Source: a virus (taxonomy: Duplodnaviria > Caudoviricetes). Taken from it: a stretch of DNA of 25,922 bases. Both the position numbers and the translations under genes were made by a program. The stretch covers positions 1-25,922 of IMG/VR virus record IMGVR_UViG_3300030085_003578, one strand, 5' to 3'. Positions 2 to 25,922 of the stretch are shown here, in pieces (the stretch's first letter is position 1; every line of letters begins with the position of its first letter). The notes beneath the pieces were generated by a model that saw only the letters and a program-made list of their open reading frames with translations, did no database searches and was not told where the DNA came from.

Positions 2-334
2 AGTACTATAGATGGAGAAACAAGACAGAAGTTTAAAGGTGAAAGATATCAAGTATTCTCTAACAATGTTACAATGACTATCAAAGGATTTGAAAGACAT
101 CTAATTACAGATGGTTCATTTACAATGTATACCAGTGGCAATACTAACATAGTATCTGATTCAAATATAACATTGAAGTCTACATCTAATGTTAATATTC
201 ACACAGAAGATGGTTTGAACATGGATGCATTAGGCAATACTACTATTGATACACCGCAACAGTTTCTTGTTGGCACCAGTGTCACGCCAACGAATACATT
301 TATCAAATCAACTAGAATTGATCTAAACGAATGA
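2..334 (+). CDS. gp5: Baseplate hub/central spike protein gp5, C-terminal beta-helix region (5'-truncated by the window edge)
   Basis: The frame of the 74..334 ORF stays open back to base 2 (STIDGETRQKFKGERYQVFSNNVT-M...), so ATG 74 is internal. It shows roughly 8-residue beta-strand periodicity, ends in RIDLNE like the IDLN/IDIG terminus of T4-type gp5 spikes, and lies upstream of gp25/gp6. Confidence 0.7.
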   Translation, partial: STIDGETRQKFKGERYQVFSNNVTMTIKGFERHLITDGSFTMYTSGNTNIVSDSNITLKSTSNVNIHTEDGLNMDALGNTTIDTPQQFLVGTSVTPTNTFIKSTRIDLNE

Positions 335-1629
335 GTATGAACTTTAGCATAGAGGAATTCAATAAGGCACTACAAAATAGTGGTATCGATGAAAAGCTAT
401 CTGATATAACTGATACTGTTACAACTCAACTAAACAGTATTATTGATCTTGATATATCTGCTGAAAGTCCTTCTACACTAAAGTCTACACTTCAATCATC
501 TACAGATGCTATTGCTGATATAACAAATGTATTGCATGAAGCTACTGCTGAACTAGCACCTCAGCTTACAAGTTTACAAGAAAAAATGGGTGAAATACTA
601 TCTGGTAGTGCTGCTGTTGGCCAACTACAGGCTCTGATTGATAGCGTTTCAAATGATATTGACATACCTTCTGTTGAAACATTACAACAAAGAGCTAGTG
701 ATTCTATCACATCTATACAACAAACTGCATTAGATGCACTAAGAGGTCAAGAAGATGACCTTGCTCCTGGAGGTACTTGGAGTGATGCATCTGGAGCAAT
801 AAGAGCTCAGTTGAATCAAGCTACTACTAGCATTACAGGTTCAGCATTTGATCCAGGTAGCTTATTTGAGAATATTGTATTCAAAACTGAACCTACATTT
901 GATGAAGATGGTATACAAAATGGTGAAAGAGTTGTTGCATTCAAACTTGGTAAGGCTCCATTACAACCAGTTAAAGATGCGCTGTCTAATGTTGATCTCA
1001 AACCTTATGAGATAAAACAACCAGCTGAAATTGTAAAGAACAAGCTGTTAGAAGACAAAGGAACATCTATTGCCACACTGTCTACTGTTATAAATAAATT
1101 TAAGGAAAGAATTGCCACTGATGTGGTGTTTGATGAATCAACTGGTGAGAATATTGTGTTTGTCAGAACCATTGACGAAGATGGTGCTGAGATAACACTA
1201 CCAGCTGGTTTTGCAAGTAAGAGTGACTTTGAAGAATCATTTGTGCAAGCAAGAAATGCAGCACAAGGTATGATGCAAAAGAATGCTGGTGAATTAAGAA
1301 AGTTTGTAGGAGATAACACTGAAGTAGCTCAAGATACATTTGAACGATTAAGTAAGATAGCATCTACACTACCTACTTCAGAACTAAGTGGTGGAAATGT
1401 AATAAAATTTGAAAGAGATCCAATCACTGGACTTGCTGTCAACCCTGAGAATGCATTGAATGCTTTTGGACCTACCATAGAGGCAGCTAAGAAAGCATCT
1501 CCTGGTATTGAAGATAACTTGAAAGAGCTCTCAGAGAAATTCAAAAAGTACTTTACTCAGTTGGGTAAAGAACTACCGCCTGGTCAAGAACCAGAGCCAT
1601 TCGACGAACCTGAGGAGGGTGCAGAGTGA
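331..1629 (+). CDS. Hypothetical acidic, probably largely helical protein (432 aa) between gp5 and gp25
   Basis: Long ORF with an ATGA overlap to the upstream gene and a GTGA overlap to the downstream gene, and codon style like its neighbours. No recognisable motif. The start could be Met1 or Met3. Confidence 0.8.
   Translation: MSMNFSIEEFNKALQNSGIDEKLSDITDTVTTQLNSIIDLDISAESPSTLKSTLQSSTDAIADITNVLHEATAELAPQLTSLQEKMGEILSGSAAVGQLQALIDSVSNDIDIPSVETLQQRASDSITSIQQTALDALRGQEDDLAPGGTWSDASGAIRAQLNQATTSITGSAFDPGSLFENIVFKTEPTFDEDGIQNGERVVAFKLGKAPLQPVKDALSNVDLKPYEIKQPAEIVKNKLLEDKGTSIATLSTVINKFKERIATDVVFDESTGENIVFVRTIDEDGAEITLPAGFASKSDFEESFVQARNAAQGMMQKNAGELRKFVGDNTEVAQDTFERLSKIASTLPTSELSGGNVIKFERDPITGLAVNPENALNAFGPTIEAAKKASPGIEDNLKELSEKFKKYFTQLGKELPPGQEPEPFDEPEEGAE
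1089..1096 (+). promoter_or_regulatory. TATAAATA match inside the 432-aa ORF
   Basis: Exact consensus, but about 530 nt upstream of gp25, so it may be a chance match in AT-rich DNA. Confidence 0.25.
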
Positions 1630-2045: not shown

Positions 2046-3862
2046 TGGCTACGACCAATACAGAATTTTCGGTCGCCAACTTAGATTTTAGTACAATAAA
2101 ATCTAACTTAATCACGTTTATGCAAGGCCAGGATATCTTTTCTGACTATGACTTCACTGGATCTAACTTAAATGTATTGATGGATCTGTTGTCATACAAC
2201 ACGTACTACAATTCAATATATCTTAACCATGTTGCAACTGAGATGTTTCTTGACAGTGCACAGTTAAGAGATAGTGTGTACTCAATATCCAAGTCACTAA
2301 ACTATCTACCAAGATCATTTAGATCATCGTTAGCATATGTAAACATCAATGTGAACCCAACAAGCAATCCACATCAGATCACAATACCAAGACTTACTAA
2401 GTTAACATCTACTATTGGTGACAATACATATACATTTTCAACCAATTCAGATATAATTGTGTATGCAAATAACAGCTATCTTGCTTCTAATGTAGCAATA
2501 TACGAAGGTGATATAGTTCAAGAAGCATTTCTCGTTACAAATACATCACCAAACACACAAAGTTTCTTTATCAACAACTCAGATGTTGATGTTACAAGTC
2601 TTGCAGTAAAAATAAGAACTTCAAACACGGATAGTACAAATTCTGAGTACACAAGAGCAAATACACTATTTGGATTGACAAGTACAAGTAATGTATACTT
2701 TGTAGAGCCATCAACTAATGGAAGCTACAAAATTGTATTTGGAAATGGTACTTTTGGAAGACAACCATCAAATAACAATTTGGTTGAGATATCTTACAGA
2801 AGATCTAATGGAGAAGATCCAAATGGAGCTAATAATTTTTCTGCTGATAGTATCGCTGGCCACCCTGCAGCTATTAGTTTAGTTACCAGAGCTACTGGTG
2901 GATCAGGACCACAAGAACTTGATGATATAAGGTTCTCAGCTCCAAGAGCATTAGCAGTTCAAGAGAGAGCTGTCACAAAAGAAGACTATAAAACTATAGT
3001 TACAAACGAGTTTAATGATATTTCATCAATGAATGTCTATGATGGTGCAGATGAACCTGTGCCTCAGAATGGTGTTGTTAAGTTAGCAATACGTAGTGAT
3101 TCATTTGACATTCTACCAACAACTCTCAAGACACAAATACAAAACTTCTTGAGAGATAAGACACCTATTGGTATAAGAACTGACATCATAGATCCAGAGT
3201 TTATTAACATAGAAGTCAAGGCAAATGTTAAGTACAACAGGAATGCTACTACTGATGGACCTGGAACTATACAAACATCAGTTGAAACAACAGTAAATAC
3301 ATTCAATAATGATAATTTAGACGACTTCTTCAAGACATTCAGAAAAAGTAAGTTAATTGAAAAGATAAACGAGACAGCTACTTCTATCCTCAGTTGTGAA
3401 GTAGATGTAAGGATGATGAAACTGATAAGCCCACAAGCTGATATAAGTTTCAATAAAACATTGTTATTCAACCAAGCATTCAAGAGAGACAATCCAGTAG
3501 AGCCTGTATCGCAAGGATCATTTGTATCATTCTCTACTCCTACAGTTCAATCAGAAACATTTGTATTCAATAACATTACTGGTGCATCATTGAGAGATAA
3601 TGGAGCTGGAACACTACAAGTAGTGACAGCAAACTTGACAAACATTGAAGTTTTGAGCGCTAATGTTGGCACAATTGACTATTCATCTGGGGAGGTTGCT
3701 ATATCAAATCTTGTTATAAACTCATACTCATCTGGTACTTCATCTGGTACCATAAAAATATTTGCTCGACCAGAGGATGATGACATCCAAGGACTGAGAA
3801 ATGATGTTATAAGGATTAGAACAAATGAGACTAGTGTGAGTGTTATAGAACTTAGAGAGTGA
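2045..3862 (+). CDS. gp6: Baseplate wedge subunit gp6
   Basis: Motifs LDF..IK.NL, FSDYDFTGSNLNVLMDLLSYNTYY, EMFLDSAQLRDSV, Y.PRS, FGNGTFG, RAVTKEDY and GTIDYSSGEV. TAATG coupling to gp25 and a GAGG RBS. Confidence 0.95.
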   Translation: MATTNTEFSVANLDFSTIKSNLITFMQGQDIFSDYDFTGSNLNVLMDLLSYNTYYNSIYLNHVATEMFLDSAQLRDSVYSISKSLNYLPRSFRSSLAYVNINVNPTSNPHQITIPRLTKLTSTIGDNTYTFSTNSDIIVYANNSYLASNVAIYEGDIVQEAFLVTNTSPNTQSFFINNSDVDVTSLAVKIRTSNTDSTNSEYTRANTLFGLTSTSNVYFVEPSTNGSYKIVFGNGTFGRQPSNNNLVEISYRRSNGEDPNGANNFSADSIAGHPAAISLVTRATGGSGPQELDDIRFSAPRALAVQERAVTKEDYKTIVTNEFNDISSMNVYDGADEPVPQNGVVKLAIRSDSFDILPTTLKTQIQNFLRDKTPIGIRTDIIDPEFINIEVKANVKYNRNATTDGPGTIQTSVETTVNTFNNDNLDDFFKTFRKSKLIEKINETATSILSCEVDVRMMKLISPQADISFNKTLLFNQAFKRDNPVEPVSQGSFVSFSTPTVQSETFVFNNITGASLRDNGAGTLQVVTANLTNIEVLSANVGTIDYSSGEVAISNLVINSYSSGTSSGTIKIFARPEDDDIQGLRNDVIRIRTNETSVSVIELRE

Positions 3863-15094: not shown

Positions 15095-15754
15095 ATGGCA
15101 AAAACATCTTTTTTAGGAGCTAACATTGCTGTAGCTACTGATACCTTCAGAGAATGGGTTGAAAGAACAAATCAACTTGTTTATGATGCAGGTACAATAA
15201 TAGTTACAGTTGGTGCAGTTAGTTCTCCAAACTCAACAAACCATACTATTACTACAGGAAATGGTCATGTAAATGGCTTCTTCTCTGCTAATACATTAGT
15301 TGCTAAGGATACAATAAGAGGTGGTACTGTTGCAACAGCAGCAGCTCTTAATGTTGCATCCAATGTTCATGTATCTGCAAATGTAACTCATGATATTGGT
15401 ACACCTACTATGATGGTTGCAAATGGATATTTTAACAACATATTAGTAGCTGGTGATGTTGAAGCTAGTTTTTCATCTGACATAAAATTGAAAACTGATA
15501 TCTTACAAATGACTAATGCAATGGAAGTTGTAAGTAAAATAAATGGTTATCAGTTTAGATGGAAGACAGATGATCAGAAAAATGGACAGCTTGATTTAGG
15601 TGTTATTGCTCAAGAGATAGAAGAAGAATTACCTTTTCTTGTTTCTACAAACGGTAACGGAAACAAAGCAGTTAAGTACCAATCGCTCATTCCTCTGTTA
15701 ATAGAAGCTATTAAAGAACTCAATAATAGAGTTGAAGAATTGGAGAAAGAGTAA
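15095..15754 (+). CDS. Short tail fibre protein with C-terminal intramolecular chaperone (Peptidase S74/ICA domain)
   Basis: N-terminal DTFREWVERTNQL anchor-like motif. SDIKLKTDI...INGYQFRW...GVIAQEIE...V.Y..LIPLLIEAIKEL plus a coiled-coil end is the S74 chaperone signature. GAGGA RBS. Confidence 0.9.
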   Translation: MAKTSFLGANIAVATDTFREWVERTNQLVYDAGTIIVTVGAVSSPNSTNHTITTGNGHVNGFFSANTLVAKDTIRGGTVATAAALNVASNVHVSANVTHDIGTPTMMVANGYFNNILVAGDVEASFSSDIKLKTDILQMTNAMEVVSKINGYQFRWKTDDQKNGQLDLGVIAQEIEEELPFLVSTNGNGNKAVKYQSLIPLLIEAIKELNNRVEELEKE

Positions 15755-16047
15755 TGCCATTAAAAGTAGCTGGCGTAACTATTGTTAACAGCACCGCCAA
15801 TGTTCAAACAGCAACACTTCCAGACACGGGTATATCAACTGGTAACTTTGGAAATACAACTTTTGCAATAACTGCAAATGTTACAAGTAGAGGTCTCGTG
15901 AATGCTATTAGTACTGCAGAGATAACAAAAACATCTCGCAACTTTGAAGCAGCCTCTAACAATGATTCGTCGTATGTTGTTTACGTTAGCACATCAGGTC
16001 CATCTGGTGGTGCAAATGGAGACATCTGGTACCAGACATTTAGTTAA
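15754..16047 (+). CDS. Small fibre-associated protein (97 aa)
   Basis: TAATG coupling. Contains L.DTGIS.G.FG......NV.SRG.V (fibre-repeat-like) and ends in VSTSGPSGGANGDIWYQ, a motif common in phage fibre proteins. Confidence 0.7.
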   Translation: MPLKVAGVTIVNSTANVQTATLPDTGISTGNFGNTTFAITANVTSRGLVNAISTAEITKTSRNFEAASNNDSSYVVYVSTSGPSGGANGDIWYQTFS

Positions 16048-16061
16048 GGCATATATAAAGT

Positions 16062-19000
16062 ATGTCTTACTCTACACGACTCTACGCAAAAGAATACGCA
16101 GGAGGTGAACGAACCTTCGAGATCTCGTATACTGGAGAGAATACGAGAACTCCATACATTGTGTATACAAATGCGTTCCATGGATTCTACAATGGATTTG
16201 AAGGAGTCTATACCAAGAGTAGGACATCTACACTAGCTTGGCAATCTAACTTTGCTGGCAACTATACAAAGACCTATGAAGGTTTTACTAACTATCAATC
16301 TCAAGATACAACAACATACTCTAAGGCTTATACATCCTTAAAGAACTTTTCTGGTGTAGATGGATACAGAAAAGAGTATGGTTCAGAAACCAATCAGCCA
16401 GATAGTATCTGGGCTGCAATGAACATACTTGCAAACTATTCTGGTACTTACTCTTCAGATATAGGTTACAGTCGTGTAGTTGGATATGTTGGTGATGGTC
16501 CATATGATGGAGCATCATTTACTGGAACATATGAAGGTGTTGCAAACTTTACTCCAACATATTCTGGTTTCATTGGCTTTGCACAATACACAAAAACATA
16601 TGAAGGATCAACTGATTATCTCAAAACATATCAGAAGACATATGTTGGTGAAACAATTTACCAAGCTGAATGGCAAAGAGCATATGCTAAACAATATGCA
16701 GGTTTAGCAAACTATACAAAGGCATATCAAAAAGATTATGAAGGTTTAGTAAACTACTCAGCAGGTCCTTGGGTTGGAGCTGATAGCTTTATAGTTTTTA
16801 CAAAAAACTATGGTGGAGCTATAACATATCTAGATTCTACTGGTGCTGGTTTCACAGGTTTCATTAACTACACAAAAGAATATCAAAATCTAAGATACTA
16901 TACAGTACAGGTAAACTATACAAAAGATTATACAAAATCATACACTGGTGCTGCTAACTATGAAAAGCAATATGTAGGTAGAGCATCATATGCTGCTGAT
17001 GAAAACTTTAACAAAGACTACGTAAAAGCATATAATGTAACAGCTAACTTTACCAAAGTATGGTCTGGTGGACAAACATATGAAGGTCCAGTAAACTATG
17101 ATGGTGCATCATATACTGGAACATACCAAGGTGATACTGTTTACTCAACACTTATCTACTATGTTGCAACATCTGATTATACTGGATCATATAGTGGTGT
17201 TGCCACCAACTCATTCTTAGGATTAGCTTATGAAGGTGTATACAACAAAACATACGTTGGTGATTATGTAAAGACTTATACCAAAAATTGGTTGAAAGAT
17301 TATACTAAGATTTGGGTTAAGGCCTATGATAAAAATTGGGTCAAAGCATATGACAAGCTGTATGTAGGTGACTACGAAAAAGAATACCTTCTCTCTTATC
17401 ATAAAGATTATGAAGCAACATATACTAAATTATGGCAAGCTGATTATCAAGTTGCATATGATAAAACATATGAAGGTACGTTTGATACAATTTATGAAAA
17501 AGCGTATACCAAAAACTGGGTAAAAGACTACAATAAAGATTACACAAAGGCTTGGGTTGGTACTTACAATAAAGATTATGTAAAAACATATTCTAAGATA
17601 TATCAAAAAGACTGGGTCAAAGATTATGATAAGATATATGTTGGACCAGTTTTCTACGGTGGCTTTGCTTCTGGATCACAAACGACAAACTATACTAAAG
17701 TATGGCAAGCAAGTTATGTAAAAGATTATGAAAAAGATTGGGAAAAGGCATACGTTAAATCATACGAAGGATCGTTTGATACCAATTATGTTATAGCATA
17801 TCAAAAAGACTTTCTCAAAGATTATATCAAAGGTTACACTAAAACATATACTGGTGTATATACAAAGATATGGAACGCATCTTTCCTCAAAGACTGGGCT
17901 GCAGACTATGCCAAGATATGGACTAAGAACTATGATGAGTCTTGGGCCAAGGAATGGGAAAAGGATTACGGTAAAACATACACCAAGATCTGGGAAAAGG
18001 TATGGCAGAAAGATTATGTAACTGACTATGAAAAAGATTATGTCAAAACATATACAACAGATTACAACAAAGATTACGTAAAAACTTATTCCAAAGATTA
18101 TGTAAAAACATATGAAACAGATTATACAAAAATATGGTCAAAAGATTATGCTGATGACTATACTAGAGTTTGGGAAAAAGCATACGATAAGATCTATGAA
18201 AAAGTTTGGACCAAGACTTATACTAAGAACTGGGTAAAAGACTACGAGAAGAATTACGTAGCAGCATACATCAAAAACTATGATAAGACTTGGGAAAAAG
18301 ATTATGTAACTGATTATGATAAAGTTTATCTAACTGATTGGAACAAAGGTTACGTCAAAACTTATACAGCTGCATATACAAAAGACTGGGATAAGGTTTG
18401 GACTAAAACATACACCAAAGCATATGTTGGTGCTTATACTAAGATTTGGGAAAAGAACTGGGATAAGAATTATGTTAAGTCTTACGACAAAGCATGGGTT
18501 GGTGTATATCAAAAAGATTACATAACATCTTATCATGTTCCATACGACAACTTTGATGATACTGTTCTGTTACTAAATGCAGAGGCTCCAACAGCTACAG
18601 ATAATGATACAGACTTTCATGACTTGTCTGATCAAGGTAACCATGTTACAACTGTACACGGTAATGCTGCTAAGAGTACAGATCAAAAGAAATTTGGTTC
18701 TGCATCTATAGAAGTTCCAAGTAGTGGTTCTAGTGGTCTAACAATCAACTTTGCAGATGATGACTTTAATTTTGGCAATGAAGACTTTACAATTGAGTTT
18801 TGGTTAAGAGCTCCAGGTACAAACAATGCAACAATCTTAGAAGCATATGCATCTGCTGACAATAGTGTCAAGTGGGCTATAAGAGGTAACGATGCAAGTA
18901 GTCCAAGTCAAATTATATTCTACGAAGGAACAACTGCAAGAGTTACAGCAGATGACAATAGTCCATGGTCATCTGATACATTTAACCATGTTGCAATCGT

Positions 19001-22000
19001 AAGAATAAGTAACACAATCAAAGTATATATCAATGGTACAGCTGATGCAGCAACTTACGGAACTGCAGCAAACTTAGCTGGTGCAAATAGATTAGTTATT
19101 GGTAACAGAAGACAATTAGATGCATCCATTGGTGGTTTTATTGATGATCTTAGAATAGACAAAGCTAACGGTAAGTATACTGCTAACTTCAACGTCACTG
19201 ATAATGAAACAGCTCAAGAACAAATCAACTCAGCTGATTGGACATCATATCAAAAGAACTATGTAAAAACATACACTACTGATTACAACAAAGATTATGT
19301 CAAGGCCTACGAGAAGGCTTGGACTGGTGTATATACAAAGGACTGGGTAAAAGATTATGATAAGATCTATGAAAAGAACTGGGTAAAAACATACGATAAA
19401 GAGTATGATAAAGTTTATCAAAAGAACTATGTTAAGACATATACTAAGATATATGCAAAAGATTGGGTTGGTACATACGATAAGATCTACGTTGGCCCAG
19501 TGTTCTATGGAGGTTTTGCTTCTGGTTCTCAAACAACAAACTATACTAAAGTTTGGGAAGGGTCATTTACTGACAACTATTCAAAAGATTGGAATAAGGA
19601 CTACGTAAAAGATTATACCAAGATTTGGACAAAAGATTGGAATAAAGACTACGTAGCAGCATATACCAAAGTATGGCAGAAGAATTATGATAAGACATAC
19701 GAAGGTGTGTTCAATGCCAACTATGAAAAGAACTATGTAAAAACTTACACCAAAGATTGGAACAAAGATTATGTAAAAGATTACATTAATGTCTTTGTTG
19801 GTGAGTGGGTTAAAAACTGGGTTAAAGATTACGAAGGTTCTTTTGATGCAACATACAATAAAGATTACGTTAAGTCATATGCTAAAGATTATGATAAAGT
19901 ATATGAAGGATCTTTTGATGGTAACTGGAACAAAGATTATACTAAGATATATGATAAGATATATGAAAAAGACTGGAATAAAGAATATATTGAAACATAT
20001 GAAGCAGCATATACCAAGATCTGGACTAAGAACTGGGTCAAGAATTATGATACATCATATGAAAAACAATATGATAAAGACTGGGTAAAGACATATCAAA
20101 AAGATTATGTAACTGATTATGAAAAAGATTATGTTACCAACTATGTAAAAGATTGGATAAAAGGTTACGATAAAGTCTATGCTAAGTTGTGGGCTAAAGA
20201 ATATGATAAAATCTATACCAAGATCTGGGAAAAGAACTACGTAAAAGATTACGAGAAAAATTATGTTAAGACATATACCAAAGACTGGAATAAGAATTAT
20301 GTAAAAACTTATACCAAAAATTGGGTAAAAGATTACGTAGTTAACTATGAAGTAGATTATGGTAAGACTTATACAAAAGCATATGAAGCTCACTATACAA
20401 GAGACTTTGTAAAACTATATCAAGGTGAATACACTAAAACATATGAAAAAGATTATGTTGCATCATATGAAAAGAACTATGATAAGATATATGTTAAAGA
20501 CTATGTAACTGATTACAATAAGTTGTATCAAGGTGAGTACAACAAATCATATGATGCAATCTTTGCTACGTTCCTTAAATTCTATATGGGTGCAAGGAAC
20601 TTCGAAGGAGCAATCAACTTTGTTAAGAACTATGTTGGCCCAACATATTATGTATCTCAATGGGGTACACAATATATTGGTGTCTACACTGGTGACTATT
20701 CTCATGCATATACAAAGAACTATTCTAAAGATTACAATGCTGATTATACAAAAGCATGGAATAAAGTATATACTAAAGATTGGGTCAAAGGATATGATAA
20801 AGACTATGCAAAAGATTGGGTTGTAAATTATACAAAGACATATCAGAAAATATATGTTGGTCCTGTTTTCTATGGTGGTTTTGCATCTGGGTCACAAACA
20901 ACTGATTACACTGGTGACTGGAATAAAGATTATGCTAAGGTATGGGAAACACTATATGTTGGTACTTGGGAAAAAGCATATGCTAAAGACTATGATAAAG
21001 ACTGGGAAAAAGTATACACAGGTACTTGGTCTAAAGATTATCTTAAAGATTACGTAAAAACATATTCAGGAAACTACTCAGGTACATACTCACCAGCTGC
21101 TACATTTGATACTGGATACACTGGTGCTACAGATTATTCTGGTCCAGTAAATTATCTCAAAACTTGGGAAGGTCCATATCAAGGTAGCTTTGCTCCAACA
21201 TACACTGGAGAAGAAGACTTTGTACAAAGATACACTGGAGACTGGCCTACAAATATTGCTTTTGAAGGTACAACAAGTTTTGTTGGTCCATCCTCAGGAC
21301 AGCTTGATTCCGACCTTACTGGTCAACCTAAACTCCATGTTATGCAAGATAACACTTGGAAGTCTGTCAGAAACTTATTTGTACATCAATCTGGTCAATG
21401 GAAAAAAGTTAGATATTTAAACACCAAGCAAGGTGATGAATGGAAACTTGCTTACATAGGATACGATACTACTGACATCTTCTTAGATGAAGGTGAAGCA
21501 TTACTTGATGATTCTGATGCTGGATCAGCTAGAGGTGTTGAAACACACTTAGGTAAGATAACTTACTACATCAATAACTTTAATCTTAAATCTTATCTTG
21601 AAGCTAAAGGCAAGACACCAGACTCAGTTCCACAACTTGTAAACATATACATTGGTGATAAGAACGACTATACAAAGCAATTCATATTTGGTTCTACTGC
21701 AAACAACATACCTGCTGTTAACTTAGTTATGGATTCAGTAACAGCAAATGTTTCTGGTGATACACAAGCAGAAATTAAACACCTTGTTCGTATTGTAAAC
21801 TATACAACAGGCGTTATTGCTGGTAAAGGTGGTGATGGTGGTGATGCAAATGGTAGCACCAGAGGACTTGGAAATGATGGTAGTGATGGTGGCCATGCTA
21901 TTGAAACAGGAGCCAATGTACATCTGTTCATAGAGAACTATGGTATCATTGGTGGTGGTGGAGGTGGTGGAGGTGCATCAGGTATCTCTGATCCATACAG

Positions 22001-25000
22001 TAAAGAAGCTGGTGTTTACACAACAACATATCTTGGCGCCACATATCATGGAACTACAGCTCTTACAGAATATGCTGCTACATGGAATAAAGCGTATACA
22101 AAGGACTGGATAAAAGATTACATAAAAGACTACACTGGTGATTATGCAAAAATATATACCAAGACTTATGAAGCTGCATACACAAAAGCATATGTTGGTG
22201 CATATGAAAAAGATTGGGTAAAAACTTATACTAAAGAATATGCTGCTGACTTCTCAAAAACATATGATAAAGTCTGGTCTAAAGATTATGAAAAAGCATA
22301 CGAAGGATCTTTTGAAGAGAACTATGTTAAGACATATACAAAACTGTGGCAAGGTAACTATGAGAAAACATATTCAAAAGACTATGCTAAGATATACTCA
22401 AAAGATTGGACAAAAGCATTTGATGCTGTCTATGTTGGAATATATACAAAAACATATACAAAAGCATATGCAAGAATCTTTACAAAAGCATTCAATACTG
22501 ATTGGGAAAGAGACTTCTCAACAGACTACAATAAAGGATATGATGTTGATTACCAAGGTGATTATACTAAGTCTTGGGAAAAAGTTTACTCAGCAGACTA
22601 CGAGAAAAATTGGGCTAAAGATTATGTAAAAGAATATGTTGGTGACTATACAACTGATTACAATAAGACATATACAAAAGCATACGTTGGTGTGTATAAT
22701 AAAATATGGGCAAAAGATTATGATGCAGCTTACGTAAAAGTTTGGGAAGGCAACTACAACAAAGATTATGAAAAGAACTATGTCAAATCATATGAAGGAT
22801 CATTTGATCAGGCATGGGCAAAGGTTTGGGAAAAGAATTACGAGAAAGTATGGCAAGGAACATTCTCAAAGAACTATGCAAAGAACTATCAAAAAGTTTA
22901 CAGTAAACAATATCATGGAACATATGATAAAGATTACACAAAAGCATATGTTGGTAGATTGTATTGGATTGATGAAGATAAGGCAACATACACTGGACCT
23001 CTTGGATCGTTTACATCTGCAGTTGGATATGGTGATGGTGAAGTTGAATATGCAATTGATTATGGTAAGCAATATGTTTCTGGATTTACTGGAGCAACAG
23101 CATACACAGTATCATCAAGTTTTGTATCACCAGGTGAAATAGAATCATTCTCACAAGCTGAGAACTACGATGTTGATTATGTTAAACCATATGAGAGAAT
23201 ATACGACAAGCCATATGAGAAAGTTTATGCAAAGGCTTGGGATTCATCAGCAGCTAACTATGCTAAGCAATGGGAGAAGAACTGGTTAAGAGATTGGTCT
23301 TCTAACTGGGTTGGATCCTTCCATGGTGGAACACAAGATGCTGCTACACCAACTGCATATGTTAAAACATTCTTACCAGATACTGGTGTTGCATTGTATG
23401 CAAAAGAGTATACAAATACACTGTACACAAGATTGTATGGTGGTTATGAAAGTGCTGGTACAATTACATCCACAGGTTCATATGCAAAAGCATACTCTAA
23501 GGCATATGAAAAAACATGGACTAAGACATACGATAAAGCATACCTCAAAACATACACAAATATTTTTGAGAAAGCATATGACAAAGACTATGATGGACTT
23601 GGATATGATAAAGATTGGCTTAAACAATATGTTAAGACATATGATGGAGCATCATATACAGGATCATTTGAGAAGACATATCAAAAAGAATATACAAAAG
23701 TATGGCAAGGTGACTATGTAAATGAATGGGCTGGTTCTTTCAATAAAGAATATGCAGCAGACTATAATGCAACATATGTAAAAACATACGTTGGAGTATA
23801 TACAAAAACATATGAGAGTGCTGATGCTGCTTATGTTGGACCAACTTATGATGGTGCAACATATACTAAGTCCTGGGAGAAAGACTACGAAAAAGCATAT
23901 TCCAAAGATTGGGAAAAAACATATACCAAGTCTTGGGAAAAGGATTATGAAAAGGTATATGAAGGTTCATTTACAAAAGCATGGACAAAAGATTACAGTA
24001 AAGACTACAACAAAGATTTTGCATCTAACTTTACAAAAGATTACGTAAAGAATTATGATCGTGACTATGTTGGAGACTATACAAAAACATACGAAAAAGA
24101 TTACTCAGCAGACTATGCTAAAGCATGGAACAGCTCAGCTGCAACATATACAAAAGCATGGACTAAAGCATATGATAAGTTGTACCAAGGTACATATACT
24201 AAGTCATATGAAAAGAACTACGAAAAGGATTACGAAGGTGCATTCACAAAAACTTACACCAAGGTATATCAAAAGGATTACGAAGCTGCATATGCTAAAG
24301 ATTTCACGAAGGCTTGGGTCAAAGCATACGATGCAGACTACACAAAGACTTATTCAACAGATTATACAAAGGCGTATACAAAGAACTACGACAAGGATTA
24401 TGTTGGATCGTACATTGCCACATTCTCAAGATCATACGACAAAGATTATGAAGGCTCGTATGATAAAGAATATGAAAAAACCTGGACCAAAGTTTGGACC
24501 GTTGGCTTCGGGTCTACAACTTACGTAGGAGAATATACAAAAGTTTACATAGCTGATTACACCAAAAACTACGATAAAGACTTTGGTGGATCATACGATA
24601 AAGAATACGTTAAAGAGTACAATGCTGAATATGTTGGTACCTATACAGCAACTTACATCAAGACATACTCTGAAGATTTTGTAAAAGAATATACTAAGTC
24701 TTATGATAAAGACTATGTTGCAGAGTACAATGCTACTTGGATCAAAGAATATCTTGGTCAGTATCAAAGAGTTGGTGGTGTGTATGGAGGTTATCTCAAA
24801 ACATATACAGATACGTTTGTTAGAGTATACAACACTAAAGGATCGTTCATTGGTACATATACAAAGAACTATCAAAAAATATATGAAAGAGAATATCTTG
24901 GAACATATACTAAGTTGTATCAAAAAGCATATGAAGGTACATTTGATAAAGACTATCTAACTAACTATACAAAAAGTTATGACAAGATTTATGTTGGCCC

Positions 25001-25589
25001 AGTGTTCTATGGTGGTTTTGCTTCTGGCTCACAAACAACCAACTATACTAAAGTATGGAACAAAGATTACGAAAAGAACTGGATCAAAACATACACAGGT
25101 ATCTTTACAAAAGATTATCTCAAAGAATACACTGGAACATACCTTGGAACATGGACAAAAGATTATGCCAAGGTATATGAAGATAATGCATGGTCAAGAG
25201 AAGTTAATGTTTCATACATGGGCTTTGCTGAATCAACTGGTGTTGCAGGTTCTGGTGGTGCTGGTTGGAACATTGGTACAAAAGGTACAACAGAAGCTGA
25301 TCACAGTCATCTATTATTCTTACCACAAGATAGTGATGTATTCAATGGTGGTGGTAGAGGTGTTCCAGATTGGGAGTATGGAAACTCTAGAGCTATAGGT
25401 GGTAGAGGTGGTAACTTAGGAAACATTGGTACTGGTGGTGGTGAAAGATTCTTGAGAAAAACAAGACTTGCTAGATCTGGTGATGGTGGTAAGCCTGGTG
25501 CAGCCATTAAAGGATACAATTCCAACTTCGTAAGTATGATATATCAGGGCAACATCTTGGGTGATCCTAACTATAAGTTCCAAGGGTAA
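16062..25589 (+). CDS. Giant (3175 aa) Tyr/Trp/Lys tetrapeptide-repeat protein with a LamG-like domain and a split gp38-like glycine-rich adhesin domain; putative receptor-binding appendage
   Basis: Uninterrupted 9.5-kb ORF in a fibre-gene context. Domains were recognised by motif (see the sub-features below). The ORF is secure; the function is inferred. Confidence 0.85.
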   Translation: MSYSTRLYAKEYAGGERTFEISYTGENTRTPYIVYTNAFHGFYNGFEGVYTKSRTSTLAWQSNFAGNYTKTYEGFTNYQSQDTTTYSKAYTSLKNFSGVDGYRKEYGSETNQPDSIWAAMNILANYSGTYSSDIGYSRVVGYVGDGPYDGASFTGTYEGVANFTPTYSGFIGFAQYTKTYEGSTDYLKTYQKTYVGETIYQAEWQRAYAKQYAGLANYTKAYQKDYEGLVNYSAGPWVGADSFIVFTKNYGGAITYLDSTGAGFTGFINYTKEYQNLRYYTVQVNYTKDYTKSYTGAANYEKQYVGRASYAADENFNKDYVKAYNVTANFTKVWSGGQTYEGPVNYDGASYTGTYQGDTVYSTLIYYVATSDYTGSYSGVATNSFLGLAYEGVYNKTYVGDYVKTYTKNWLKDYTKIWVKAYDKNWVKAYDKLYVGDYEKEYLLSYHKDYEATYTKLWQADYQVAYDKTYEGTFDTIYEKAYTKNWVKDYNKDYTKAWVGTYNKDYVKTYSKIYQKDWVKDYDKIYVGPVFYGGFASGSQTTNYTKVWQASYVKDYEKDWEKAYVKSYEGSFDTNYVIAYQKDFLKDYIKGYTKTYTGVYTKIWNASFLKDWAADYAKIWTKNYDESWAKEWEKDYGKTYTKIWEKVWQKDYVTDYEKDYVKTYTTDYNKDYVKTYSKDYVKTYETDYTKIWSKDYADDYTRVWEKAYDKIYEKVWTKTYTKNWVKDYEKNYVAAYIKNYDKTWEKDYVTDYDKVYLTDWNKGYVKTYTAAYTKDWDKVWTKTYTKAYVGAYTKIWEKNWDKNYVKSYDKAWVGVYQKDYITSYHVPYDNFDDTVLLLNAEAPTATDNDTDFHDLSDQGNHVTTVHGNAAKSTDQKKFGSASIEVPSSGSSGLTINFADDDFNFGNEDFTIEFWLRAPGTNNATILEAYASADNSVKWAIRGNDASSPSQIIFYEGTTARVTADDNSPWSSDTFNHVAIVRISNTIKVYINGTADAATYGTAANLAGANRLVIGNRRQLDASIGGFIDDLRIDKANGKYTANFNVTDNETAQEQINSADWTSYQKNYVKTYTTDYNKDYVKAYEKAWTGVYTKDWVKDYDKIYEKNWVKTYDKEYDKVYQKNYVKTYTKIYAKDWVGTYDKIYVGPVFYGGFASGSQTTNYTKVWEGSFTDNYSKDWNKDYVKDYTKIWTKDWNKDYVAAYTKVWQKNYDKTYEGVFNANYEKNYVKTYTKDWNKDYVKDYINVFVGEWVKNWVKDYEGSFDATYNKDYVKSYAKDYDKVYEGSFDGNWNKDYTKIYDKIYEKDWNKEYIETYEAAYTKIWTKNWVKNYDTSYEKQYDKDWVKTYQKDYVTDYEKDYVTNYVKDWIKGYDKVYAKLWAKEYDKIYTKIWEKNYVKDYEKNYVKTYTKDWNKNYVKTYTKNWVKDYVVNYEVDYGKTYTKAYEAHYTRDFVKLYQGEYTKTYEKDYVASYEKNYDKIYVKDYVTDYNKLYQGEYNKSYDAIFATFLKFYMGARNFEGAINFVKNYVGPTYYVSQWGTQYIGVYTGDYSHAYTKNYSKDYNADYTKAWNKVYTKDWVKGYDKDYAKDWVVNYTKTYQKIYVGPVFYGGFASGSQTTDYTGDWNKDYAKVWETLYVGTWEKAYAKDYDKDWEKVYTGTWSKDYLKDYVKTYSGNYSGTYSPAATFDTGYTGATDYSGPVNYLKTWEGPYQGSFAPTYTGEEDFVQRYTGDWPTNIAFEGTTSFVGPSSGQLDSDLTGQPKLHVMQDNTWKSVRNLFVHQSGQWKKVRYLNTKQGDEWKLAYIGYDTTDIFLDEGEALLDDSDAGSARGVETHLGKITYYINNFNLKSYLEAKGKTPDSVPQLVNIYIGDKNDYTKQFIFGSTANNIPAVNLVMDSVTANVSGDTQAEIKHLVRIVNYTTGVIAGKGGDGGDANGSTRGLGNDGSDGGHAIETGANVHLFIENYGIIGGGGGGGGASGISDPYSKEAGVYTTTYLGATYHGTTALTEYAATWNKAYTKDWIKDYIKDYTGDYAKIYTKTYEAAYTKAYVGAYEKDWVKTYTKEYAADFSKTYDKVWSKDYEKAYEGSFEENYVKTYTKLWQGNYEKTYSKDYAKIYSKDWTKAFDAVYVGIYTKTYTKAYARIFTKAFNTDWERDFSTDYNKGYDVDYQGDYTKSWEKVYSADYEKNWAKDYVKEYVGDYTTDYNKTYTKAYVGVYNKIWAKDYDAAYVKVWEGNYNKDYEKNYVKSYEGSFDQAWAKVWEKNYEKVWQGTFSKNYAKNYQKVYSKQYHGTYDKDYTKAYVGRLYWIDEDKATYTGPLGSFTSAVGYGDGEVEYAIDYGKQYVSGFTGATAYTVSSSFVSPGEIESFSQAENYDVDYVKPYERIYDKPYEKVYAKAWDSSAANYAKQWEKNWLRDWSSNWVGSFHGGTQDAATPTAYVKTFLPDTGVALYAKEYTNTLYTRLYGGYESAGTITSTGSYAKAYSKAYEKTWTKTYDKAYLKTYTNIFEKAYDKDYDGLGYDKDWLKQYVKTYDGASYTGSFEKTYQKEYTKVWQGDYVNEWAGSFNKEYAADYNATYVKTYVGVYTKTYESADAAYVGPTYDGATYTKSWEKDYEKAYSKDWEKTYTKSWEKDYEKVYEGSFTKAWTKDYSKDYNKDFASNFTKDYVKNYDRDYVGDYTKTYEKDYSADYAKAWNSSAATYTKAWTKAYDKLYQGTYTKSYEKNYEKDYEGAFTKTYTKVYQKDYEAAYAKDFTKAWVKAYDADYTKTYSTDYTKAYTKNYDKDYVGSYIATFSRSYDKDYEGSYDKEYEKTWTKVWTVGFGSTTYVGEYTKVYIADYTKNYDKDFGGSYDKEYVKEYNAEYVGTYTATYIKTYSEDFVKEYTKSYDKDYVAEYNATWIKEYLGQYQRVGGVYGGYLKTYTDTFVRVYNTKGSFIGTYTKNYQKIYEREYLGTYTKLYQKAYEGTFDKDYLTNYTKSYDKIYVGPVFYGGFASGSQTTNYTKVWNKDYEKNWIKTYTGIFTKDYLKEYTGTYLGTWTKDYAKVYEDNAWSREVNVSYMGFAESTGVAGSGGAGWNIGTKGTTEADHSHLLFLPQDSDVFNGGGRGVPDWEYGNSRAIGGRGGNLGNIGTGGGERFLRKTRLARSGDGGKPGAAIKGYNSNFVSMIYQGNILGDPNYKFQG
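17631..17705 (+). repeat. Dispersed 75-nt repeat, copy 1 (KIYVGPVFYGGFASGSQTTNYTKVW)
   Basis: Read directly; other copies start at 19482, 20847 and 24984. Confidence 0.97.
18552..19190 (+). other. LamG/concanavalin A-like lectin domain within the giant ORF (about aa 831-1043)
   Basis: VLLL..., F.D.S..., GNA..ST.QKKFGSASI, FNFGNEDFTIEFW, NHVAIVR..NTIKVYINGT, L.IG, GFIDDLRI and YTANF make up the phage Laminin_G_3-type pattern. Confidence 0.9.
19482..19556 (+). repeat. Dispersed 75-nt repeat, copy 2 (KIYVGPVFYGGFASGSQTTNYTKVW)
   Basis: Same peptide as copy 1, with only synonymous DNA differences. Confidence 0.97.
20847..20921 (+). repeat. Dispersed 75-nt repeat, copy 3 (KIYVGPVFYGGFASGSQTTDYTGDW)
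   Basis: First 19 aa identical to the other copies; three substitutions in the last 6 aa. Confidence 0.95.
21576..21983 (+). other. gp38-like glycine-rich adhesin domain, N-terminal half (about aa 1839-1974)
   Basis: VIAGKGGDGG...GSDGGHAIETGANVHLFIENYGIIGGGGGGGG parallels the GRGG.GG...GG..I......LRINN.GAIAGGGGGGG pattern of T2/S16-type gp38. Confidence 0.75.
24984..25058 (+). repeat. Dispersed 75-nt repeat, copy 4 (KIYVGPVFYGGFASGSQTTNYTKVW)
   Basis: Same peptide as copies 1 and 2, with only synonymous DNA differences. Confidence 0.97.
25239..25586 (+). other. gp38-like glycine-rich adhesin domain, C-terminal half (about aa 3060-3175)
   Basis: GSGGAGW..G..G, GGGRG, GGRGGNLGNIG, GGKPGAAIKG and GNILG parallel the later glycine-rich motifs and the G.I.G terminus of gp38-type adhesins. 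Confidence 0.72.
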
Positions 25590-25595
25590 GAGGCT

Positions 25596-25922
25596 ATGGG
25601 TAAGCCTCTCAAGATTAAAACCACTGGTGGTGGAACTTGGGTTGCACTACAAGAAATACCTGATACCGAACTAACACACATTGTACATCAAGTTCTTTTA
25701 GAGTTTGCTTCTAGTACTTCTGGTACAGGAACTTTATCTGTTGGAACTGATACTGGTGACAGTATAGGTTCTTTTACTGATACAAATTCATCTGCAAGCT
25801 CAACAACAACAGTTTATCAGAATCTAACATCAGTTTCTGAAACAAGTATGATCCGTCCTGTTGAATTTAGTACAACTATACAGGAAACATCGGATGCAAA
25901 TCTTAACTCGATTATCATTAGT
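25596..25922 (+). CDS. Hypothetical Ser/Thr-rich, probably structural protein, 3'-truncated (not in the ORF track)
   Basis: ATG at 25596, six bases after the giant ORF stop, preceded by AAGAGG. Open for 109 codons to the window end: MGKPLKIKTTGGGTWVALQEIPDTELTHIVHQVLLEFASSTSGTGTLSVG... Confidence 0.8.
   Translation, partial: MGKPLKIKTTGGGTWVALQEIPDTELTHIVHQVLLEFASSTSGTGTLSVGTDTGDSIGSFTDTNSSASSTTTVYQNLTSVSETSMIRPVEFSTTIQETSDANLNSIIIS

Follow-up and report, generated by a model that had tools for sequence, protein, structure and literature searches.

A gp38-type phage adhesin whose aromatic-lysine repeat tracts probably pair into a branched tree of two-stranded ribbons

In the present study, a 3175-residue protein encoded in a 25,922-nucleotide stretch of viral DNA (IMG/VR record IMGVR_UViG_3300030085_003578; the whole stretch is referred to as the window) was analysed. 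We propose that this protein is a gp38-type adhesin whose repeat tracts fold back on one another, forming two-stranded beta-ribbons arranged as a branched tree. Starting at the tip of the tail fibre, this tree would extend for about 100 nm and catch sugars on the host surface. The proposal as a whole is considered likely, and its central element, the fold-back pairing of the tracts, is regarded as very probable.

Results

Repeat tracts

The first-pass annotation, made from the letters alone, had described a protein with Tyr, Trp or Phe at every fourth residue over well more than half of its length, mostly Lys (otherwise Gly, Ala or Thr) at position 3, residues such as Thr, Val, Glu, Asp or Asn at positions 2 and 4, and a long register in which the sequence never simply repeats. 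This description was confirmed by counting. Runs of at least three units number 28 and comprise 502 units, i.e. 2008 residues or 63% of the protein, and the longest in-register runs extend over 86, 74 and 72 units, compared with an average of 4.8 and a maximum of 9 for the longest run in 200 residue shuffles. Position 1 is occupied by Tyr (72%), Trp (20%) and Phe (8%), position 3 by Lys (63%), Gly (16%), Ala (7%) and Thr (5%), and positions 2 and 4 by Thr-, Val-, Glu-, Asp-, Asn- or Ala-like residues; among 376 units counted, 191 were distinct, and the charge was near neutral (261 Lys plus Arg against 237 Asp plus Glu). The search pattern ([YWF].K.){10,} recommended earlier is too strict for this protein, in which only two runs attain 10 units (11 and 16), because Gly, Ala and Thr at position 3 belong to the pairing code described below.

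At the DNA level, Tandem Repeats Finder (TRF) returned short, 12-nt-based arrays only. The full-length gene was found without gaps in two further contigs (L124 and L230) at 99.5-99.7% identity, which rules out an assembly artefact. The view that the repeat belongs to no recognised family was upheld in part: neither the tracts nor the whole protein matched a profile in Pfam, PHROGs or NCBIfam, searches whose sensitivity is lowered by the biased composition, and the tracts matched no PDB sequence. In addition, no homologue of near-equal length was found in the protein database, and the repeat was not found described in the full texts searched, a collection mostly outside the subscription journals. 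No counterpart of the proposed branched self-pairing fibre design was found among the structures, families and papers searched.

Locus and hub

Profile searches gave the gene order gp25, gp6, gp7-like, gp8-like wedge, DUF4815, a 71-aa virion protein, a 219-aa fibre protein, a 97-aa protein and the 3175-aa protein. The order from gp25 to DUF4815 is that of a T4-like (Kyanoviridae-related) tail module, so that the position after baseplate and fibre genes noted in the first-pass annotation was correct. The closest cultured matches of gp8 were from Caulobacter phage Cr30 (36%) and Sinorhizobium phages (32%). Upstream of gp25, a 432-aa protein (window 331-1629) gave no convincing family match. The genes at the end of the window are as follows.

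15095..15754, + strand: 219-aa fibre protein with S74 intramolecular chaperone (PF13884, E 2.3e-14)
15754..16047, + strand: 97-aa protein without family match, directly upstream of the repeat gene in 10 of 10 loci compared
16062..25589, + strand: repeat adhesin gene, 3175 aa; proposed ribbon tree 1, hub (beta-hairpin domain and split gp38-like domain), proposed ribbon tree 2
25596..25922, + strand: start of a second repeat protein, cut off by the end of the window (a near-identical contig has all 1452 aa)

The 219-aa protein is likely a trimeric fibre segment, and the 97-aa protein is a candidate adaptor. The location of the 3175-aa protein on the virion is highly probable. As had been supposed, its chain carries adhesion domains, namely a LamG domain (PF13385) and a gp38 domain (PF05268); what had been overlooked is the gp38-type adhesin scaffold itself, which is split by the repeats.

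18555..19247, + strand: LamG/concanavalin-A-like domain, residues 832-1062 (PF13385, E 1.4e-18, 67.9 bits against a cut-off of 27.6)
21321..21461, + strand: small all-beta domain with three Trp-Lys hairpins, residues ~1754-1800 (phrog_25859, E 1.8e-4; beta-hairpins predicted)
21462..21983, + strand: gp38-like domain, first half, residues 1801-1974 (PF05268, E 9.7e-11; beta-helix part)
21984..25247, + strand: insertion in the gp38 loop, about 1090 residues (hairpins and a less regular inner stem)
25248..25589, + strand: gp38-like domain, second half, residues 3063-3175 (phrog_11439, E 0.0014; glycine-rich motifs and C-terminal strands)

The Pfam GP38 match (residues 1895-1980) exceeds the cut-off and ends half-way. 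Glycine-rich segments lie at residues 1921 and 1964 in the first half, and at 3063, 3096, 3114-3127 and 3140, in an order that fits gp38 with a count of five or six; gp38 itself has five such motifs, with four short hypervariable loops between them. In nine intact homologues, 126-149 aa separate the second motif from the C-terminus, compared with 968-1439 aa in six split ones, including the window protein. The intact hub of one homologue (L043) was modelled with AlphaFold (pLDDT 65.5, pTM 0.70), and this model, of a protein to which the two halves of the split window domain are 41% and 37% identical, matched S16 gp38 (6F45; Z 17.2, rmsd 4.8, 219 aligned) and PP01 gp38 (9V85; Z 16.8, rmsd 3.0, 206 aligned), with the next match at 6.9; Foldseek agreed. 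The predicted fold of the hub thus points to a gp38-type scaffold, in which about 1090 ribbon residues occupy the counterpart of a receptor-binding loop of gp38. A ribbon tract within one loop must leave and return, and this was the first hint of fold-back.

The gp38-type N-terminal attachment domain was not found, as the PF05268 match begins at profile position 44-57. Its place is occupied by the Trp-Lys domain, which, judging from position and gene order, likely docks on the fibre tip. The protein would thus function in the manner of a gp38 adhesin without being a canonical one. The LamG domain is inserted in an outgoing strand and is 90% identical in a homologue whose tracts are 66-67% identical; its family label suggests that it may bind sugars.

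Pairing of the tracts

An 18-residue Gly-Pro/Tyr-Gly-Gly motif, present in four copies in the 3175-aa protein, is the hairpin tip. In the second repeat protein, the centre of which reads 80 units, tip, 80 units in the near-identical contig, the units flanking the tip were equal in number in every contig compared (80/80 in L124, L125, L126 and L127; 79/79 in L130; a variant with 65/65 in L131). A total of 72 tips were found, 60 of which had 12 units on each side, and 55 could be aligned without gaps.

The tracts match one another antiparallel, with a single register per stem. The mutual information between positions 1 and 3 reached z 4-13.6 at the symmetric register in four of four hairpins and fell to noise three to four units off; in the same hairpins, position 1 covaried with position 1 one unit on (z 6-10), and positions 2 and 4 covaried at neighbouring offsets (z up to 7). 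Covariation of this kind is the same for pairing within one chain and for pairing between two copies. The preferred cross-strand pairs were Tyr:Lys, Trp:Ala/Thr, Phe:Gly and Gly:Gly, and the avoided pairs were Trp:Trp, Asp:Asp, Glu:Glu and Val:Val, and on the other face like charges are avoided. In eight regular stems (193 units), Trp stood opposite Ala, Thr or Ser 35 times against 9.3 expected, Phe opposite Gly 15 times against 3.5, and Trp opposite Trp not once against 8.3 (chi-square p 1e-31, a nominal value as the units are not fully independent). The first-pass annotation had predicted a ladder of aromatic and Lys side chains along one side of a strand. Aromatic-Lys contacts are indeed supported, but the strongest signal lies between strands and follows a size code (Tyr:Lys, Trp:Ala/Thr, Phe:Gly).

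Moreover, compensatory changes were observed in comparison with the homologue in L125, the tracts of which are colinear with those of the window protein and 66-67% identical. Among 214 pairs, Trp:small changed to Tyr:Lys or Tyr:Gly in 10 concordant and no discordant cases (Fisher p 2.5e-4), with 14 and 19 one-sided changes, and other registers gave 0-4 concordant swaps. Positions 1 and 3 were conserved at 86% and 79%, and positions 2 and 4 at 46-53%. No long inverted repeat in the DNA that could be the source of the symmetry was found; the longest arms measured 34 nt at 71%.

The beta conformation assumed earlier was also returned by AlphaFold. From the tip alignment, residues 1099-1208 were modelled as a strand (2-51), a turn at Gly-Gly and a second strand (54-106) with a pLDDT of 74.7 in the one confident model of five (others 39-52; pTM 0.30), an input alignment that carries the same covariation making this predicted beta-hairpin a consistency check and not independent evidence. 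Fold searches with the hairpin model gave generic long hairpins as neighbours (Z no higher than 3.9, with rmsd 8-20 Å in the top rows) and no close solved or predicted structure, a result that does not by itself show a new fold. Atlas searches returned unnamed clusters only for the hairpin and nothing for the N-domain of the neighbour protein, and PDB sequence searches with the hub, the 97-aa adaptor, the enzymes described below and the hairpin gave nothing meaningful. On the aromatic/Lys face the contacts fell at offsets +2 and +4, and on the opposite face at 0 and -2; by general sheet geometry, this would fit a two-stranded ribbon that is strongly twisted and has diagonal contacts between aromatic residues and Lys.

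Branched architecture

Residues 390-831 and 1063-1504, 107 units each, taken as the arms of one hairpin with LamG at the end, showed no antiparallel covariation at 17 offsets. This model was rejected in favour of a branched tree. The same two tracts (window 17229-20573) showed a parallel-register correlation at position 1 (z 8.4; p ~0.01 over 34 offsets, before correction for 16 position pairs), which may be chance, an old duplication or a higher-order contact.

Stems were searched all against all with no registers supplied, using scores whose training set included the neighbour protein of the near-identical genome and one distant orthologue. Six nested stems with scores of 22-106 were recovered, against a maximum of 15.5 in eight unit shuffles: 628-831:1245-1448 (51 units, 105.9), 1063-1142:1165-1244 (57.5), 2012-2139:2156-2283 (51.5), 438-521:552-635 (26.9), 398-437:1457-1496 (24.3) and 2613-2684:2700-2771 (22.0). 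The units of residues 390-1504 are fully consumed by nested stems, 14+21+21+51 going out and 21+21+51+14 coming back. Pair scores were then retrained on three neighbour-gene proteins only and applied to 13 segments in 13 registers each, the registers of 2004-2291 and 2601-2787 being taken from the all-against-all scans and not predicted. The proposed register was the best in 10 of the 13 segments, two of these ten being near zero; of the others, one was off by one unit and two gave no fit. The parts of the first proposed tree are listed below, with the score of the proposed register followed by that of the next.

16062..17228, + strand: residues 1-389, irregular repeats upstream of 17229; no stem returned by the pairing scores
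17229..17396, + strand: root stem, outgoing strand, residues 390-445, 14 units; partner 1449-1504 (18.6 vs -20.8)
17397..17942, + strand: side hairpin T1, residues 446-627; 21 units, tip motif 526-543, 21 units (24.6 vs -56.6)
17943..18554, + strand: main stem, outgoing strand, residues 628-831, 51 units; partner 1245-1448 (118.6 vs -77.4, retrained scores)
19248..19793, + strand: terminal hairpin T3, residues 1063-1244; 21 units, tip motif 1143-1160, 21 units (61.7 vs -45.2)
19794..20573, + strand: returning strands of the main stem (1245-1448) and root stem (1449-1504), from the stem searches
20673..21098, + strand: hairpin T4, residues 1538-1679; 16+16 units and tip motif, weak (3.0 vs -22.6)

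Within the insertion, hairpins were assigned at residues 2004-2291 (36+36 units), 2601-2787 (about 22+22) and 2933-3042 (12+12, with the tip motif), and the inner stem (2292-2600) was resolved in part only by the pair scores. A second, short, Ser/Ala-rich tip type closes the hairpin 2601-2787 (window 24126-24149, residues ~2689-2696) and perhaps also a small 6-unit hairpin at 2369-2423 (window 23238-23261 region, residues ~2393-2400), which the scores did not resolve.

Other members of the family showed the same kind of organisation. In four shorter homologues, the best partner of the N-terminal tract is the tract immediately preceding the hub, above all shuffles in P0003, P0004 and P0010, and in the same geometry, not above shuffles, in P0031. 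Stems in a single register extended over 95 units in L129, 73 in L128 and 60, 57 and 53 in L043, and branches are gained or lost among homologues while single registers are retained. The long single-chain ribbon or solenoid stalk suggested earlier therefore stands as a long ribbon and falls as a one-way path, since the registers and swaps indicate a chain that goes out, comes back and branches. As far as pairing in the sequences can tell, the chain likely folds in an RNA-like manner into very long two-stranded ribbons that branch like a tree, with LamG in one strand.

Distribution and neighbouring repeat genes

The tip motif was found in 43 stretches on 17 viral contigs and in 55 stretches on 30 metagenome contigs, the two sets partly overlapping, and was absent from 185,579 cellular genomes, which hence gave no hint of a host. 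Hairpin searches matched 185 clusters at 50% identity (E 0.001). Most of the 150 of these that were listed had the neighbour-type scaffold, many of them with Arg in place of Lys, and a few were unrelated. Of 28 distant relatives with enough Lys-type units, 16 exceeded all five shuffles. A loose Y-x-K-x DNA pattern was rejected as a family search, as most of its 122 loci were unrelated simple repeats.

Database searches found no cultured close relative, and the only annotated phage record matched was phage C48C1 (hypothetical protein WJE88074). In its base stem, Arg-x-Ser stands opposite Phe-x-Gly in 6 of the first 17 positions by eye; the count over the whole protein was not above control (19 against a mean of 17.8). 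WJE88074 (L001 13845-23888) is an Arg-type protein of 3347 aa with several globular inserts; Arg stands at position 1, too, facing Phe-x-Gly units, and the protein contains an exact duplication of ~70 residues, maybe an assembly error. A frameshift near residue 1490 in another orthologue (L127 4851-14257), on a contig with Ns, is probably also an assembly error.

The second repeat gene (window 25596-25922; L134 10001-14359) shares a short C-terminal strand motif with most of the 150 relatives listed, which suggests that its ribbon, too, is probably a loop insertion in that unnamed domain. Near its base, blocks of six units are separated by 2-residue insertions. The same kind of repeats occurs in P0021, P0033 and P0045, the N-termini of which resemble the gp7-like wedge protein of the window by eye; the ribbon may have been grafted into several virion proteins. 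In relatives, the repeat genes are followed by three genes (L134 14370-16750), of which phage C48C1 has more distant counterparts downstream of its repeat gene. They encode an acidic helper, a glycosyltransferase-like protein with Asp-x-Asp and a protein resembling an oxygenase, the last with two further copies in C48C1 (L236). One enzyme-like protein has invariant His-x-Asn, His and Arg-x-Thr residues, which we take to indicate an oxygenase, and the other an Asp-x-Asp motif, presumably of a glycosyltransferase; one weak Pfam match was obtained, and structure searches gave no structural match for either.

Discussion

Herein, we propose the following mechanism. First, aromatic and Lys side chains of both strands would interlock on one face of the ribbon and stand in for a hydrophobic core, and the size code would set the register across hundreds of residues. 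Second, the hub would keep the gp38 fold and dock through its Trp-Lys domain on the S74-chaperoned fibre, with the two ribbon trees extending outward from it. Third, LamG, the tips and exposed aromatics might bind host glycans, resulting in a wider capture radius. An extended strand rises 3.3 Å per residue, at which the longest arm (86 units) would measure about 115 nm and the branches 16-50 nm, and LamG would lie about 28 nm below the arm tip.

The same antiparallel pairs might instead be bundled into a thicker multi-stranded fibre, made up of several branches, of several copies or jointly with the neighbouring repeat protein; the three hairpins of the T4 gp37 needle are bundled in this way. 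A bare two-stranded ribbon of more than 300 residues would be unusual, and solved long hairpins occur in oligomeric barrels; two branches have 21 units each (21 and 20 in L130), the second repeat gene adjoins, and the parallel-register outlier at position 1 (p ~0.01 before correcting for 16 position pairs) would also fit a bundle. However, the contacts on both faces are accounted for within one ribbon, branch number and length vary freely among homologues, the tracts lack His-x-His metal motifs, and gp38 adhesins are monomers according to PMC12032242. Bundling is thus considered unlikely, and free two-stranded ribbons quite probable.

Free ribbons could serve a purpose other than host capture: they might act in drag or buoyancy, adhere to particles, shield the virion or function off the virion. 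The insertion fills a receptor-binding loop of gp38, which it may block; scaffolds other than this one, e.g. the neighbour protein, carry similar repeats, and likely modifying enzymes are encoded downstream. Despite these points, such a purpose appears improbable, as one chain combines the gp38 fold with a LamG domain that is far better conserved than the tracts, and the near-neutral charge of the tracts speaks against nucleic-acid binding. A narrow one-way beta-solenoid or a triple beta-helix bearing domains along its length would agree with the strict 4-residue period and the fibre gene context. This fold is very improbable given the long-range antiparallel registers, the symmetric arms, the compensatory swaps, the unbroken AlphaFold strands and a tract in one loop that has to come back to its start. 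Finally, low-complexity, slippage-made or disordered filler, although suggested by short 12-nt-based arrays and by lengths that differ among homologues, can practically be dismissed, as the two arms of a hairpin keep equal lengths, conservation is higher at positions 1 and 3 than at 2 and 4, changes are compensatory and no long inverted repeat accounts for the symmetry.

Long protein fibres are coiled coils, collagen helices, solenoids or trimeric beta-structures. If the branched ribbon tree is correct, it would represent another way of building a fibre, in which a partner strand hundreds of residues away is located by a simple cross-strand code and three-way junctions form without linkers, by rules that are legible from the sequence and could be used for testing and design with short constructs. 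The tracts would also serve as naturally occurring data on which residue pairs are preferred across strands and would make it concrete how phages in dilute water might extend their reach, and the hub links the architecture to a known virion part, so that its location can be tested. We give about even chances to the broader hypothesis of a new filament class, in which a pairing-code fold with RNA-like branching, predictable from the sequence, forms free ribbons of more than 100 nm. In marine T4-like phages, such ribbons would have been inserted into several virion proteins to form a capture net, and would be finished by dedicated hydroxylase-like and glycosyltransferase-like enzymes.

Comparison with known systems

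The closest known system is gp38 of T2-like phages (PF05268; 6F45; 9V85), which shares the beta-helix and glycine-rich sandwich, a fold match obtained from the intact homologue, what seem to be the same glycine-rich motifs with variable loops between them, and the place of the gene after an S74-chaperoned fibre gene. The putative attachment domain of the window protein is predicted to be all-beta, whereas that of S16 gp38 contains helices. The window protein differs also in size (3175 aa against about 250) and in having 1750 residues ahead of the hub. According to PMC12032242, the loops between the glycine motifs of gp38 bind the receptor and the second loop has 14 residues, compared with about 1090 after the second glycine motif here.

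The T4 gp37 needle, whose D10 is made of residues 811-881 and 1010-1026 (PMC6957217), resembles the proposed ribbons in a chain that goes out to the tip and returns, and in Gly opposite an aromatic residue across strands. In contrast, the needle is a trimer with seven iron atoms bound via His, about 130 residues out and back, and no tetrapeptide repeat or branching, whereas single stems of the present type reach 95 units (380 residues per strand) and the tracts contain no His-x-His metal motif, the sole one in the protein lying outside them at residue 3081. Pore-forming toxin stems and the phi29/P68 lower collar were the sole fold-search neighbours of the hairpin model, but these are poor fits, being strands of oligomeric barrels without the aromatic-Lys repeat. 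In designed Trp-zipper and Tyr/Trp-Lys hairpin peptides and in the Trp-Arg ladders of thrombospondin, cross-strand aromatic and cation-pi contacts steady few-stranded sheets that have no core. These systems comprise 12-60 residues, in comparison with about 2000 residues governed by a size code in the window protein.
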